Shown here: positions 38,601 to 44,600 of the stretch, piece by piece | Layout of the letters: each line of letters opens with the position of its first letter | Position numbering within the stretch: the stretch's first letter is position 1 | DNA from: Escherichia coli | GTDB taxonomy: Bacteria; Pseudomonadota; Gammaproteobacteria; Enterobacterales; Enterobacteriaceae | Reading direction: 5' to 3' (one strand) | Assembly (NCBI RefSeq): GCF_045037415.1 | Contig: NZ_CP173438.1 | DNA length: 64,000 bases | Position numbers: made by a program

Positions 38601-41600
38601 AAGTAGTGACTACATTAACGCTTGTTTTAACAGCAGTAGGGTCTGTTTTACTGCTGCTGTTTTTAGTCATGAAGGCGCGTATGCACGCTTTCCTGGCTTT
38701 AATGGTGGTGTCCATGGGGGCTGGCCTTTTTTCCGGTATGCCGCTCGATAAAATCGCAGCGACGATGGAAAAAGGGATGGGAGGCACCCTCGGCTTCCTG
38801 GCGGTGGTTGTCGCCCTGGGAGCCATGTTTGGTAAGATCTTACATGAAACCGGCGCGGTCGATCAGATTGCCGTCAAAATGCTCAAATCCTTCGGTCACA
38901 GCCGCGTGCATTATGCCATCGGCCTTGCGGGGCTGGTTTGTGCGCTACCGCTGTTCTTTGAAGTGGCGATTGTTCTGCTGATTAGCGTTGCTTTCTCAAT
39001 GGCGCGCCACACCGGCACGAACCTGGTGAAGCTGGTAATCCCATTATTCGCCGGCGTGGCGGCAGCGGCTGCGTTCCTGGTGCCTGGGCCAGCGCCAATG
39101 CTGCTGGCATCGCAGATGAACGCCGACTTTGGCTGGATGATCCTGATTGGCCTGTGCGCGGCAATTCCGGGAATGATTATTGCCGGGCCGCTGTGGGGTA
39201 ATTTCATCAGCCGCTACGTGGAGTTGCATATTCCTGACGACATCAGCGAACCGCATCTCGGCGAAGGCAAAATGCCGTCCTTCGGATTCAGCCTGTCGCT
39301 GATCCTGTTGCCACTGGTGCTGGTGGGGCTGAAAACCATTGCCGCGCGTTTTGTGCCAGAAGGTTCTACCGCTTACGAATGGTTCGAGTTTATTGGTCAT
39401 CCGTTTACCGCGATTCTGGTTGCTTGCCTGGTGGCGATTTACGGTCTGGCAATGCGTCAGGGTATGCCAAAAGACAAAGTGATGGAGATTTGCGGTCACG
39501 CGCTGCAACCGGCGGGGATCATTCTGCTGGTGATTGGTGCGGGCGGCGTGTTCAAACAGGTGCTGGTTGACTCTGGTGTCGGTCCGGCACTGGGCGAAGC
39601 GTTAACCGGCATGGGCCTGCCGATTGCCATCACCTGCTTCGTGCTGGCAGCTGCAGTGCGCATCATTCAGGGTTCTGCTACCGTTGCCTGTTTAACGGCG
39701 GTGGGATTGGTAATGCCGGTCATTGAACAACTGAACTACTCCGGTGCGCAAATGGCGGCACTGTCGATTTGTATCGCCGGTGGTTCGATTGTTGTCAGCC
39801 ACGTTAACGACGCGGGTTTCTGGTTGTTCGGTAAATTTACCGGCGCGACCGAAGCCGAAACGCTTAAAACCTGGACCATGATGGAAACCATCCTCGGCAC
39901 TGTCGGTGCCATCGTTGGGATGATTGCGTTCCAGCTGTTGAGTTAATTACTGCGACAAATTACTGCGAGCTTGCTCGCAGTAATTCATTTCTCTTTTCTC
40001 CTGTCTTCATCTTTTTGATCTCTCTCGCAAAAAGACCGGAACATTATCCGTTCTAATCACTGTGTTAACGGACGAGGGAGAAGATGATGGAGAAACACGG
40101 AGCTGAATTGCTGTTACAGCGGATGTTAAGTAACACCAGCGCTACTTTCAGGGAAGGGCAATGGGAAGCTATAGATGCGGTGGTTAATCAGCGGCGAAAA
40201 CTACTGGTTGTACAGCGCACCGGCTGGGGGAAAAGTGCCGTGTACTTCATCGCCAGTAAAATCTTCCGCGATCGCGGCGCTGGCCCGACAATTATCATCT
40301 CTCCTTTGCTTGCCCTGATGCGTAACCAGGTTGCCGCCGCTGAACGGTTAGGTATTACGGCTGAAACGTTGAATTCTACAAACAGGGAAGAATGGCAGCG
40401 CATTAGCGATAAGTTGCTGCAAGGTGGCGTAGATTGTCTGCTGATTTCACCTGAACGGTTGGCGAATCAGGATTTTCTTGAAACGGTTTTATATCCAGTC
40501 GCTGACCGCATCGGTTTACTGGTGGTCGATGAGGCGCACTGCATCTCTGATTGGGGCCACGATTTCCGCCCGGATTACCGACGTATATTAGATATTTTGC
40601 GCCAACTGCCTGCGAATACCCCTATTCTGGGTACAACCGCGACAGCGAATAACCGTGTCGTTGAGGATATCCGTCAGCAATTGGGTGACATTGTGATTCA
40701 GCGTGGAACGCTGGCTCGCGAAAGTTTGGCGCTTGATGCCTTAGTCTTAGGAGAACAGTCATCCCGTCTGGCATGGTTAGCAACGGTTATCCCTCAGTTT
40801 TCCAAATCGGGAATTGTTTATACCCTGACGACTCGCGATGCTGAACTTGTCGCCGAGTGGTTAAGGAAAAATGGTATCAGTGCATTTGCTTATTACAGCG
40901 GCGTGACTTGTGAAGGTGCGGAAGATTCTAATACTGCCAGGGAGTATCTGGAGCAGGCACTGCTGGCAAATAAAATCAAAGTGCTGGTCGCGACGACGGC
41001 ATTAGGTATGGGATTTGATAAACCTGATTTAGGTTTCGTCATTCATTATCAGATGCCGGGGTCTATTGTCGGTTACTACCAACAGGTGGGGCGTGCCGGG
41101 CGTGCTATAGATTCCGCAGTTGGCATATTGCTTTGTGGTGGTGAAGACCGCGCTATTCATCAATTCTTCCGTGAAAGCGCCTTTCCTGCGGAGGCGCAAA
41201 TTCATGAAATACTCAACGTACTTAGCGAGAATGACGGTCTTACCCTACGAGGCATTGAACAACGGACGAATCTTCGTTATGGGCAAATAGAAAAAGCACT
41301 GAAATTATTGGTAGCTGAAAATCCATCGCCTGTGGTGTATACCGAGAAATTATGGCGCAGAACTATCGTCAGTTTTTCTCCTGATCATGAACGAATTAAC
41401 CATTTGATGAATCAGAGAAAAAGTGAGTTGGCAGACGTTGAAAGCTATATCACGACCAAGGAGTGCAAAATGCAATTTCTGCGCCGCGCACTCGATGAGC
41501 CAAGTGCCGAACGTTGTGGTAAATGTAGCAGTTGTCTTCAGCATCCGCTGTTGTCGCCCGACATTGATAGCGACTTACTCCATGCGGCAAATTTATTTAT

Positions 41601-44600
41601 TAAACACGCTGACCTGCCATTAAATCTCAATAAACAGGTGGCATCTGGGGCTTTTACGCAATACGGATTTAAAGGGAACTTGCCTGCGGGTTTACAAGGA
41701 TCTACGGGGCGAATCCTTTCTCGTTGGGGAGATTCCGGGTGGGGAAAGCAGGTAGCCCAGGAGAAAAAAACGGGGCGCTTCAGTGATGAGCTGGTGGAGG
41801 CATGTGCGGAAATGGTTCGCCAACGCTGGAATCCGCATCCTGAACCCACCTGGGTATGCTGCGTTCCTTCATTAAGGCACCTCGACCTGGTTCCTGATTT
41901 TGCCCGGCGACTGGCGGCGAAACTTGGCTTACCTTTTATTGATGCCATTGAAAAAGTCGTGGACAATCCACCGCAGAAAATGCAGCAAAACCGTTTTCAC
42001 CAGTGTCAAAATCTCGACGGGGCGTTTGTGATTACCCCTCCTTTGATGCCAGGTCCGGCGTTGCTGGTTGATGATATCGTGGATTCTGCATGGACGCTGA
42101 CAGTTCTGACAGCACTGTTACGCCAGGCAGGTTGCCCGACGGTTTATCCTCTTGCCCTTGCTTCTACCTCGGTAAAAAATTGATGAATCTTTCAGCCAAT
42201 GCTCAAGCAACTCTCCTGCTAACCAGCGATTTTTCTCGCGCGGCGGCGAGTGAGTATAAACCTCTTAGTAATAGTGAATGGGGGAAGTTTGCATTATGGC
42301 TGAAGCACCAACGTATCAGTCCCGCCGAGCTTCTGGTGCCGCAACCGCAAGAGAAACTTACAGGCTGGAGCGATCCGCGTATTTCTCAGGAGCGAATTCT
42401 TGGCTTGCTGGCGCGTGGTCATAGTCTGGCGTTGGCTGTAGATAAGTGGCAACGCGCCGGTTTATGGATCTTAACCCGCGGAGATGCCGATTATCCCGTT
42501 CGCTTGAAAAACCGATTGCGAACGGATGCACCTCCCGTTTTATTTGGCTGCGGGAATAAAGCATTACTGCAAGCGGAAGGTATGGCGATTGTTGGCTCGC
42601 GAGATGCTCCGACTGACGATTTGCGCTATACCCAACAACTGGCCGCGAAACTGGCCCAACAGGGGATTTGCGTTATCTCTGGTGGTGCGCGAGGTATTGA
42701 TGAATGTGCAATGGCCTCGGCTCTGGAGGTCGGGGGAACTGCCGTTGGCGTATTAGCTGATAGCTTGTTAAAAACGAGTACGTTAGTGAAATGGCGTGAA
42801 GGGCTTATAGCAGGCAACCTGGTGTTGATTTCGCCGTTTTACCCAGAGGTACGTTTCACCGTCGGCAATGCGATGGCGCGGAATAAATATATTTATTGCC
42901 TTGCTGAAAGCGCAATGGTTGTACGTGCGGGAATGACCGGTGGAACGATAACCGGGGCGATGGAGGCATTAAAACATCAGTGGCTGCCCATGCAGGTTAA
43001 ACCAAATCAGGATATGCAATCAGCCAATTCACGATTAGTAGAAAATGGGGCGTCATGGAGTGCTGAACAGGCTGAGAATGTGACGATCAGACTGCCAGAC
43101 GTTCCTGGGCTGATGTATGACAGAGCACTCCGTAACGCTCAACCAGAACTGTTTTCGCTGCACGAAGATGACGCAAATTACGCAGTAATGCCCGCGCATA
43201 CCCCTGTCGATTTTTATCAACTCTTTGTGGCGGAACTGGCGATCCTTGCAAAGGAATCGATAAGTATTGAAAGGCTGGCGTCTTGTACTGGTTTAACCAT
43301 CGAACAAATTAGTGTGTGGCTGAACCGCGCAGAAGAAGAGGGAAGGGTTATCCGATTGGGCGAAGGTCATTATCAGTTCAGGTAATAAAACAGGTGCCGC
43401 GTCTGGTTGTGTGCAACACCTGTTTGAACCTTACCCCTTCATCCACATTCGAATGCCGTCGAGGAACATCTGAGTTGCCATCATCACCAGAATCAATCCC
43501 ATCAGGCGTTCAAGTGCGTTCACCCCTTTCTCGCCCAGCAGACGTAAAAATAGCGAAGACTGTAGCAGGATGACAAAGGTGCCGCCCCAGGCCAGCAGCA
43601 GAGCAATCACCAGATGTCCCATCTGATTCGGGTACTGGTGAGACAACAACATCAGCGTGGCGAGAATAGTCGGCCCGGCGACTAACGGAATTGCCAACGG
43701 CACGATAAATGGCTCTTCACCTGCCGGAAGCCCGCTGCTATTTCCTGAAGCGCTGGGGAAAATCATCTTAATGGCGATCAGAAACAGAATGATGCCGCCA
43801 GAAATGGAGACGGTTTCTGCCCGCAGGCTAAGAAATGCCAGAATTTTCTCGCCCGCAAACAGGAACACCAGCATCACAAGGAGAGCAATAAGCAACTCTC
43901 GCACCATGATTGCCCGCCGTCTTTTCGGTTCAGTATGTTTCAGTACGGACATGAAAATAGGTAGGTTTCCGAGCGGATCCATAATCAGGATCAATAAAAC
44001 TGTTGCAGAAATGATTTCATTCATAACTCAAATTCCCTGATAATTGCCGCGGACTTTCTGCGTGCTAACAAAGCAGGATAAGTCGCATTACTGATGGCTT
44101 CGCTATCATTGATTAATTTCACTTGCGACTTTGGCTGCTTTTTGTATGGTGAAAGATGTGCCAGGAGGAGAACCGGCACATTTATACAGCACACATCTTT
44201 GCAGGAAAAAACGCTTATGAAAAATGTTGGTTTTATCGGCTGGCGCGGTATGGTCGGCTCCGTTCTCATGCAACGCATGGTTGAAGAGCGCGACTTCGAC
44301 GCCATTCGCCCTGTCTTCTTTTCTACTTCTCAGCTTGGTCAGGCTGCGCCGTCTTTTGGCGGAACCACTGGCACACTTCAGGATGCCTTTGATCTGGAGG
44401 CGCTAAAGGCCCTCGATATCATTGTGACCTGTCAGGGCGGCGATTATACCAACGAAATCTATCCAAAGCTTCGTGAAAGCGGATGGCAAGGTTACTGGAT
44501 TGACGCAGCATCATCTCTGCGCATGAAAGATGACGCCATCATCATTCTTGACCCCGTCAATCAGGACGTCATTACCGACGGATTAAATAATGGCATCAGG

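Follow-up and report, generated by a model that had tools for sequence, protein, structure and literature searches.

The gene pair found at the gntU-yhgN junction of this Escherichia coli genome (NCBI RefSeq assembly GCF_045037415.1, contig NZ_CP173438.1) raises the question of whether it forms a defence or DNA-processing system of its own kind, as a preliminary description of the window (the whole stretch of 64,000 nucleotides that was analysed) had proposed. The pair is an already known system and not a new one, because it corresponds to the described RqlH/RqlI (PsyrTA) pair, which occupies the same site in about 30% of complete E. coli genomes. In all likelihood, the locus represents the rqlH-rqlI operon carried on the E. 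coli chromosome, a member of the PsyrTA family and a large, atypical toxin-antitoxin-like module that is catalogued as anti-phage. For this E. coli allele, toxin-antitoxin behavior has been shown; its defence role is putative.

The borders of the segment are sharp. When the window was compared with K-12 by local megablast, 3,484 bp had no counterpart, and, in the junction alignment, homology to K-12 ends exactly at the stop codons of gntU and yhgN on both sides. In effect, the stop-to-stop spacing between these genes is 56 bp in K-12 and 3,484 bp here, with one sequence substituted for the other. This alignment confirms the two-gene insert absent from K-12 that had been described before. The interval given at that time, 39996-43430, was correct at its end, although its start lies just past the gntU terminator hairpin and, thus, slightly inside the true border at 39947. 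Upstream lie gntR-gntK-gntU, and downstream the convergent yhgN is followed by asd and glgB. As had also been noted, the borders show no signs of mobility: ORF calls found no integrase at the locus, no tRNA gene was found in the whole window, and the repeat search returned only chance-sized direct matches at the segment borders. The layout is as follows.

39947..43430, plus strand: whole segment absent from K-12, replacing the 56-bp gntU-yhgN intergenic region
39958..39985, plus strand: gntU-side hairpin with a perfect 13-bp stem, followed by a T-rich run (terminator scan, inverted repeat, fold)
40087..42183, plus strand: rqlH (psyrT), the helicase ORF, coding for a RecQ-like helicase fused to a phosphoribosyltransferase (PRTase), 698 aa
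42183..43385, plus strand: rqlI (psyrA), coding for a DprA/SLOG-like antitoxin, 400 aa
43388..43425, minus strand: yhgN-side hairpin, followed by a U-rich run (fold -18.5 kcal/mol, z -3.4)

The first hairpin, whose inverted repeat is 100% complementary (fold -16.6 kcal/mol, z -4.9), is unlike the hairpin of K-12 and is likely the gntU terminator in strains that carry rqlHI. The second is likely the terminator of yhgN; its plus-strand fold is weaker (z -1.6), and it is possibly bidirectional, serving rqlI too. A simple promoter scan of the plus strand upstream of rqlH found no sigma-70 site. The ORF calls bear out the previously reported 699-aa and 400-aa frames joined by a TGATG overlap, in which the rqlH stop codon TGA (42181-42183) and the rqlI initiation codon ATG (42183-42185) have one base in common. 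The 699-aa length corresponds to the first ATG of rqlH (40084..42183), while the second, at 40087, gives the 698-aa form chosen by RefSeq and in the literature. For rqlI, the longest ORF starts at 42090 and codes for the 431-aa form annotated by RefSeq; the 400-aa start is favored by the end-to-end fit of its product to the PADLOC PsyrA model and by agreement with the published length.

All the domains that had been expected in the two proteins (DEAD, Helicase_C, RecQ_Zn_bind, a weak Pribosyltran, and DNA_processg_A) were found in the Pfam search, and the motifs, including Walker A/DEAH and GGARGID, are present.

40153..41106, plus strand: SF2 helicase core of RqlH (DEAD and Helicase_C), with Walker A GWGKS and a DEAH box (Pfam, motifs)
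41413..41538, plus strand: RecQ-type zinc-binding region (CGKCSSC) of RqlH (Pfam RecQ_Zn_bind, residues 444-485, E=1.4e-3)
41611..42180, plus strand: C-terminal PRTase domain of RqlH, responsible for toxicity and bearing the PRPP-loop motif LLVDDIVDSAWT (Pfam, PDB alignment, published mutants)
42447..43058, plus strand: DprA-type Rossmann (SLOG) domain of RqlI, with the GGARGID loop (Pfam, PDB matches, motif)

RqlH matches the PADLOC PsyrT model from profile position 4 to 687 of 689 (E=0, 1065.7 bits). Its N-terminal part carries a RecQ-like SF2 helicase, with Walker A, DEAH, Helicase_C, and the zinc-binding region; in the Pfam search, DEAD spans residues 24-195 (5e-25) and Helicase_C residues 240-341 (4e-13), and a motif search finds CxxC at residue 478. 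In agreement with this, the NCBIfam model recQ_fam (TIGR00614) scores 251 bits, above its cut-off of 219.8. Canonical RecQ was rejected (TIGR01389, 293 bits against a cut-off of 640; NF008279, 224 against 1015); both alignments end around residue 366 and are far from covering the full RecQ models. The DpdF helicase of the Dpd system, which is involved in 7-deazaguanine DNA modification, was also rejected: NF041063 gives 147 bits against a cut-off of 550, the locus is flanked by gntU and yhgN and has no dpd genes beside it, and the PADLOC DpdF matches are to the helicase core or to short models resembling fragments of RqlH. The same polypeptide ends in a PRTase domain with the acidic DIVD663 motif, as in RqlHI/PsyrTA. 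Generic profiles alone would make this a marginal call, since Pfam Pribosyltran matches residues 606-684 weakly (E=8.7e-3) and the alignment to the adenine PRTases 6fsp/5zgo, which places VDDIVDS on VDDVVST, is also weak (PDB E=0.26). The published numbering of K49, D148, and DIVD663 falls on GWGKS, DEAH, and DIVD, respectively, in the protein coded here.

The gene for the DprA/SLOG-like protein lies directly downstream of the toxin gene, overlapping it on the same strand, as in RqlHI/PsyrTA. Residues 1-400 of RqlI align with positions 1-397 of 398 of the PADLOC PsyrA model (1.4e-202). Pfam DNA_processg_A covers residues 89-292 (2e-50) and SLOG cluster4 is also matched (1.8e-10), GGARGID is found at residue 167, and the PDB matches include DprA chains (2e-11) and ShosA (9vzo, 2.6e-7). 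Weak matches to TIGR00725/TIGR00730 and PDB 5zi9 lie on the LOG phosphoribohydrolase side of the SLOG fold. Canonical DprA, the transformation protein, was rejected (TIGR00732, 101 bits against a cut-off of 191; NF008007, 80 against 495). The helicase core of RqlH and the Rossmann (SLOG) fold of RqlI are homologous to those of the canonical E. coli RecQ and DprA, although RqlH differs from RecQ by its added PRTase domain. RqlH and RqlI are paralogues of RecQ and DprA, not these housekeeping proteins themselves.

Identity with the studied operon does not depend on domains only. In E. coli CFT073, too, this gene pair separates gntU from yhgN, and the segment is 99.7% identical in nucleotides to that experimentally studied locus over the full 3,484 bp. 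RqlI is 100% identical in amino acids, and RqlH is identical at 696 of 698 positions; the two substitutions, R63H and D496G, are expected to make no functional difference. With RqlH-RqlI of the ExPEC strains F11, CFT073, and 536, the locus shares its site, the order and overlap of its genes, the protein lengths, and the numbering of the catalytic residues. The name PsyrTA, after Pseudomonas syringae, was given by Sberro et al. 2013, and RqlHI by Russell & Mulvey (PLoS Pathog 2015, PMC4670107); Millman et al. 2022 listed PsyrTA, also called RqlHI, as an anti-phage defence system. Their PsyrTA clone SG127 (3,485 bp), from another strain, is this same segment, beginning at position 39946 of the window.

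The behavior of the operon is known from the work of Russell & Mulvey in those three ExPEC strains (PMC4670107). [quoted passage not shown] Deletion of residues 509-690 and the mutants D663A and DIVD663EVME end this toxicity. In these toxicity tests, done with F11 proteins in MG1655, RqlI rescues the cells; for this neutralization it uses its N-terminal and DprA regions, and it co-precipitates with RqlH only if the PRTase domain is present (PMC4670107). Because of the near-identity of the proteins, the toxicity of RqlH and its neutralization by RqlI through PRTase binding would carry over to the allele of this strain. In the same study, the rqlI deletion mutant was sick and loss of the antitoxin crippled gut colonization, the double rqlHI deletion had no fitness cost in mice, and no assay revealed a benefit of rqlHI, the double deletion being neutral (PMC4670107).

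Phage challenge has given a different picture for different members of the family. In the screen of Millman et al. 2022, a clone of the same segment from E. coli STEC 1299, which carried the native upstream region, appears in Table S2 as 'observed defense: x', that is, no defence, while defence was seen for the PsyrTA homologue of Bacillus sp. FJAT-29814, the validated defender with the same family and architecture as the locus studied here. In a 2025 study, deletion of PsyrTA in its native host E. coli NILS69, or its expression in MG1655, showed no protection and a growth defect. Defence by the E. coli allele is hypothetical. In the scheme that we infer for it, RqlH, as a RecQ-like 3′-5′ helicase with a C-terminal PRTase, and RqlI, as a DprA/SLOG-fold protein made from the same transcript with a one-base overlap, would form an inert complex in the resting cell. 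An invading element might disturb this complex by two routes: ssDNA or replication intermediates could interact with the helicase or with the DprA-like part; alternatively, RqlI could be depleted by host shut-off. The freed PRTase would then use PRPP on a nitrogen acceptor (a nucleobase, a nucleotide, or a DNA base), and the resulting damage to nucleotide metabolism or DNA would abort the infection. For the related ShosT, PRPP binding is required for toxicity and purine metabolism is disturbed. A helicase acting as sensor is a guess, because helicase-dead RqlH is still toxic (PMC4670107).

Of 5,426 complete E. coli genomes, 1,641 have the operon, in every case in the chromosome and at the gntU-yhgN site, with major ExPEC lineages among its carriers. 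The cargo is strain-specific in being absent from K-12, as had been proposed, but it is not rare, being found at this site in 30% of complete genomes. Comparison of divergent alleles gives dN/dS values of 0.05-0.08 for rqlH, with dS up to 0.21, and of 0-0.24 for rqlI, which corresponds to purifying selection. An E. coli IncF plasmid carries a 60%-identical pair embedded in a type I restriction-modification operon, which is a typical defence context.

Among the other explanations, the one that survives best, although it is unlikely, is the cooperative DNA processing or repair proposed in the authors' own model (PMC4670107), where the RqlH PRTase modifies a nucleotide within or close to DNA, RqlI and the helicase resolve or reverse the adduct, and toxicity appears only without the second step. 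The physical interaction and co-transcription of the pair favor it, as do the negative phage assays of the E. coli allele and the membership of RqlI in the SLOG fold, to which LOG phosphoribohydrolases also belong, enzymes that cut the N-ribosyl-5′-phosphate type of bond made by a PRTase. In addition, that the operon is under purifying selection and keeps one chromosomal site in 30% of genomes suggests a role beneficial to the host. By contrast, a benefit was absent in every assay, the operon is missing from 70% of E. coli, homologues are found in defence contexts with one of them defending, and some strains have an inactivated toxin gene with rqlI intact, as expected of a dispensable toxin. 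A more specific form, which we consider rather improbable, is that E. coli RqlHI is a two-enzyme modification-and-reversal pair for DNA or nucleotides and not a phage defence: a helicase-guided PRTase would phosphoribosylate a base in DNA that has been unwound, or else a free base at the fork, and RqlI would remove or resolve the adduct like a LOG phosphoribohydrolase, in analogy with DarT/DarG. Such a pair would explain both the negative phage assays and the purifying selection at one chromosomal site and, if real, would represent new DNA chemistry.

It is distinctly improbable that the operon is a selfish addiction module without current benefit, retained because loss of the antitoxin is lethal or costly. 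The sick rqlI mutant next to the neutral double deletion would fit, and so would decay that starts with the toxin: strain 106 has a frameshift ahead of the PRTase domain and NZ_OZ039848.1 an IS1 insertion, and S. sonnei 53G has a disrupted copy (PMC4670107). Nevertheless, the toxin is under strong purifying selection across alleles, each of the 5,436 matches in the E. coli genome set lies in a chromosome, the operon has no mobile element or mobility genes, and faster decay would be expected of a chromosomal module that served addiction only. A compressed competence machine for the uptake or processing of transforming DNA is very improbable: the resemblance to ComFA/ComFC/DprA pointed out in the preliminary description is real and was also raised by Russell & Mulvey (PMC4670107), but RqlI scores under the DprA equivalog cut-off, the PRTase domain is toxic and not supportive, no natural transformation was detected by those authors in their ExPEC strains, and a genuine dprA is encoded elsewhere in them (PMC4670107). 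Finally, a previously undescribed defence system with an unrecognized helicase module, as first suspected, can practically be discarded given the full-length PADLOC matches, the dedicated PsyrTA models in PADLOC and DefenseFinder, the names used in papers of 2013, 2015, and 2022, and the near-complete identity to the studied locus. As the result of a scan, the locus has little weight, since standard defence finders annotate it and a near-identical form has been studied genetically. For the family itself, it is puzzling that the E. coli allele, present in about a third of strains, shows no phage phenotype, yet the loss of its antitoxin cripples colonization of the gut.

The link that had been drawn to DprA-PPRT, also called ShosTA (Rousset et al. 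2022; Pu et al. 2025; NAR 2026), is real, as this system likewise pairs a toxic PRTase with an antitoxin of DprA type and resembles RqlHI in PRPP-dependent toxicity, filamentation, and DNA damage. The two differ in that the PRTase of ShosT is fused to a pyrophosphatase and lacks a helicase, whereas RqlH has a full RecQ-like helicase; moreover, ShosA is reported to work through ssDNA and RecA and not by binding the toxin, in contrast to RqlI, which co-precipitates with the RqlH PRTase domain. ShosT was rejected as the identity of the toxin: the best PADLOC model is PsyrT, ShosT is absent among the 25 of 38 families listed, and a helicase is present. The ShosA model matches RqlI at residues 85-266 only (6e-27), and PsyrA fits far better (1e-202, full length). 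The helicase-PRTase fusion clade of the toxin includes RqlH of Mycobacterium smegmatis, which, as in nearly all Gram-positive bacteria, has no RqlI partner (PMC4670107). Its ATPase and 3′-5′ helicase activities were shown by Ordonez, Unciuleac & Shuman (2012), and the K and D mutants of E. coli RqlH were designed from it (PMC4670107).

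The two genes found between gntU and yhgN are rqlH (psyrT), which encodes a helicase-PRTase toxin, and rqlI (psyrA), which encodes a DprA-like antitoxin. Together they form the already known RqlHI system, also called PsyrTA, in a version near-identical to the allele studied in strain CFT073. A preliminary description had taken the helicase-containing version to be unnamed and undescribed, which is wrong: both proteins give decisive, full-length matches to PADLOC profiles, ORF1 to PsyrT (E=0, 1065.7 bits, profile positions 4-687 of 689) and ORF2 to PsyrA (1.4e-202, profile positions 1-397 of 398). 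As a discovery, the locus is of little interest, and the remaining novelty lies in biochemical questions on the family rather than in the locus. Its features are as follows.

40084-42183, + strand: ORF1 (rqlH), 699 aa
42183-43385, + strand: ORF2 (rqlI), 400 aa; the longest ORF of its frame starts at 42090
39958-39985: perfect 13-bp hairpin with a T-run, 3′ of gntU
43388-43425: second hairpin, with its best fold on the yhgN strand

The domains guessed from the sequence (DEAD, Helicase_C, RecQ_Zn_bind, PRTase and DNA_processg_A) were all recovered with Pfam, the PRTase only marginally. In ORF1, the SF2 helicase core is strong (DEAD 5e-25, Helicase_C 4e-13), with a GWGKS Walker A motif and a DEAH box; the RecQ zinc-binding match is weaker (1.4e-3), and residues 606-684 give the marginal PRTase match (8.7e-3). 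This protein scores above the NCBIfam RecQ-family subfamily cut-off and far under the RecQ equivalog cut-offs. The search of its PRTase region against PDB sequences returned only marginal adenine-PRTase matches (E=0.26) and did not recover ShosT; thus, the PRTase of RqlH cannot be placed by sequence alone. ORF2 carries a DprA-type domain (DNA_processg_A 2e-50, SLOG cluster4 1.8e-10) with a GGARGID loop, and scores under the DprA equivalog cut-off. Among solved structures, the nearest to ORF2 are DprA chains (2e-11) and the ShosA antitoxin (2.6e-7). For ORF1, PADLOC also gave many matches to DpdF, an identity rejected on the basis of the NCBIfam cut-off and the neighboring genes.

The identity with the published system is also supported by direct comparison. 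In the extraintestinal pathogenic strain F11, RqlH has 698 aa and RqlI 400 aa, with rqlH directly 5′ of rqlI and both missing from MG1655 (Russell & Mulvey 2015, PMC4670107). The RqlH mutants published in that work are K49A, D148A and D663A/DIVD663EVME, and when the protein of the window is numbered from its second ATG (40087), K49 falls in GWGKS, D148 in DEAH and DIVD at 663. In CFT073, where Russell & Mulvey also deleted rqlI (PMC4670107), the RefSeq record places a RecQ-family helicase gene and a DprA gene in the gntU-yhgN interval. This locus is 99.7% identical to the segment of the window across all 3,484 bp, with RqlI 100% identical and RqlH two residues apart. The two names are equated by Millman et al. 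(2022 preprint; PsyrTA is "also called RqlHI"), who cite Sberro 2013 and Russell & Mulvey 2015 and list in their Supplementary Table S2 a 3,485-bp construct, SG127 ("PsyrTA, Escherichia coli STEC 1299"). The first bases of SG127 match the window from 39946 on, so that this clone spans the same stop-to-stop segment, taken from a different strain.

Toxin-antitoxin behavior has been shown for near-identical alleles (Russell & Mulvey, PMC4670107). On its own, RqlH inhibits growth, induces the SOS response and filamentation, sensitizes cells to DNA damage and raises the mutation rate. Toxicity is abolished by deletion of residues 509-690 or by mutation of the acidic residues in the PRPP loop, and the PRTase domain is therefore the toxic part; helicase-dead mutants are still harmful. 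Cells are rescued by RqlI, which co-precipitates with full-length RqlH and not with RqlH 1-509, and this rescue requires the N-terminal and DprA regions, the C-terminal putative HTH being dispensable. In addition, a delta-rqlI mutant has an rqlH-dependent defect in gut colonization, and delta-rqlHI is neutral (PMC4670107). The proposed link to the DprA-PPRT system, ShosTA, is one that Rousset et al. themselves make with rqlHI, and the parallel with ComF and DprA is also drawn by Russell & Mulvey (PMC4670107). In ShosTA, the PRTase toxin binds PRPP, as required for its toxicity, disturbs purine metabolism and produces DNA damage. Its antitoxin is DprA-like and binds both ssDNA and RecA, and the system is triggered by T7 Gp0.7 via host shut-off. 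By inference, RqlHI may be a helicase-PRTase that is kept in check and would be freed when an invader perturbs the complex. No dedicated paper on the mechanism of PsyrTA or RqlH was found in the literature searched from 2023 on.

The PsyrTA family is catalogued as a defense system, and in the screen of Millman et al. E. coli was protected by a Bacillus homologue ("v" in their Table S2). The cloning of the pair with its native promoter and phage challenge, which had been proposed as a check, had already been carried out on this segment with a negative outcome: in the same table, the E. coli STEC 1299 clone is scored "x", i.e., no defense observed. Similarly, in a 2025 study, neither deletion of PsyrTA in E. 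coli NILS69 nor its expression in MG1655 pointed to protection against the phages tested, and MG1655 expressing PsyrTA had a growth defect. Thus, for the E. coli allele, toxin-antitoxin behavior is established, and a defense role is inferred only from membership of the family. A related pair is found on the E. coli conjugative IncFIA/FIC plasmid NZ_OX030731.1 (4001-7518), where a type I restriction-modification operon carries, inserted between its hsdS and hsdR genes, an RqlH-like helicase-PRTase (60% identical) and a DprA-like gene. This pair is a plasmid-borne, defense-embedded variant of the same system, and its position, typical of defense genes, offers supporting context.

At the chromosomal locus, gntR, gntK and gntU lie 5′ of the pair, and the convergent yhgN, followed by asd and glgB, lies 3′. 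Comparison with K-12 confirmed that the two genes are absent from that strain, in which the stop codons of gntU and yhgN are 56 bp apart; the window has 3,484 bp (39947-43430) instead, and similarity ends precisely at both stop codons. The left border, previously placed at 39996, is in fact 49 bp further upstream. The TGATG overlap between the genes was likewise as described, base 42183 being common to the TGA of ORF1 and the ATG of ORF2. RefSeq/PGAP starts the DprA-like gene at the ATG at 42090, which gives 431 aa and a 94-bp overlap with rqlH (42090-42182 being the added stretch); the 400-aa start at 42183 is backed by the PADLOC PsyrA profile, IMG and the experimental paper. Thousands of records probably carry a wrong start codon for rqlI. 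Upstream of rqlH, no sigma-70 promoter was found on the + strand by a simple scan, nor a convincing -35/-10 pair by eye. Since transcription of rqlHI has been shown by RT-PCR in F11 (Russell & Mulvey, PMC4670107), probably either the rqlH promoter is non-consensus or there is some read-through from gntU.

A prophage origin of the segment is rejected, as RqlH searched against a phage collection gave helicase-core matches only and no full-length helicase-PRTase. With a GC content of 0.45-0.54, the segment and its surroundings do not stand out from the flanks. As had been noted from the sequence, the borders lack signs of mobility: there is no tRNA anywhere in the window, an ORF search of it gave no integrase-like ORF, and the direct or inverted repeats bordering the segment are only chance-sized. 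Consequently, there is no basis for naming an insertion mechanism, and a deletion in K-12 is equally possible; the borders do not discriminate between loss by K-12 and gain by other lineages.

The segment (at least 80% of its length) is present in 1,641 of 5,426 complete E. coli genomes (30%), always on the chromosome and with gntU and yhgN on either side in every row examined; the remaining genomes match in the flanks only. More than 1,000 contigs, with O25b:H4 strains and SE15 among them, encode proteins of exactly these sequences, and E. fergusonii has an annotated member of the same 90% cluster. According to other authors, PsyrTA is enriched in phylogroup E2, and its expression is similar across strains sharing genomic context. 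Against three divergent alleles, dN/dS is 0.05-0.08 for rqlH and 0-0.24 for rqlI, and both genes are therefore under purifying selection. At the nucleotide level, rqlH is 94.8-97.1% and rqlI 97.9-99.8% identical to these alleles, against 97.2-97.9% for the gntRKU flank of the same strains; thus, the segment is old in the species rather than recently acquired, and rqlH has diverged further than the sequence around it. For instance, synonymous divergence from PapRG-06-5, one of the three, reaches 0.21 in rqlH and is 0.04 in rqlI, with flanks about 97.4% identical. This unevenness within the operon suggests old allelic lineages or recombination breakpoints inside it. Toxin-first decay occurs in some strains: strain 106 (NZ_CP028698.1, 3187-5311) keeps an intact rqlI next to an rqlH with a 28-bp duplication and a frameshift immediately ahead of the PRTase domain. 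The locus of NZ_OZ039848.1 is split, with an IS1 transposase under the match, and a similar disruption was reported in S. sonnei 53G (Russell & Mulvey, PMC4670107).

Other differences from K-12 are found in the window. Between livJ and panM, a 940-bp segment absent from K-12 (19891-20830) has two + strand ORFs, a TacA-family antitoxin (20039-20305; Pfam TacA1 3.6e-26) and a GNAT acetyltransferase (20312-20839), i.e., a TacAT/AtaRT-type type II toxin-antitoxin pair, with no PADLOC match for either protein. At that site, K-12 has another intergenic segment, part of which (12798-12914 of the K-12 locus) is matched at 86% identity by a 118-bp stretch elsewhere in the window (26527-26643); this stretch is probably a dispersed intergenic repeat element. 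A 2.8-kb segment between glgP and glpD (55312-58125) is also absent from K-12, which keeps only a yzgL pseudogene fragment. Its three ORFs, all on the + strand (55077-56594, 56697-57464 and 57467-58072), include a membrane protein of 505 aa whose phosphate-binding domain is PstS-like (TIGR02136 2.5e-34, under the cut-off); the 255-aa ORF and the 201-aa membrane ORF had no family match. A CFT073 fimbrial operon is also located between glgP and glpD, and the site is therefore variable. In turn, the K-12 block yhhZ(tssD)-yrhA-IS1-yrhD-yrhB (about 3.4 kb, between yhhY and ggt) is missing at 34111-34167, where 57 unmatched bases are left; CFT073 has this block without IS1. Finally, about 3.2 kb are missing relative to K-12 at about 62149-62162, where the middle of rtcR is joined to the middle of rtcA, and thus this strain has lost rtcB and parts of rtcR and rtcA, which belong to the RNA repair operon.
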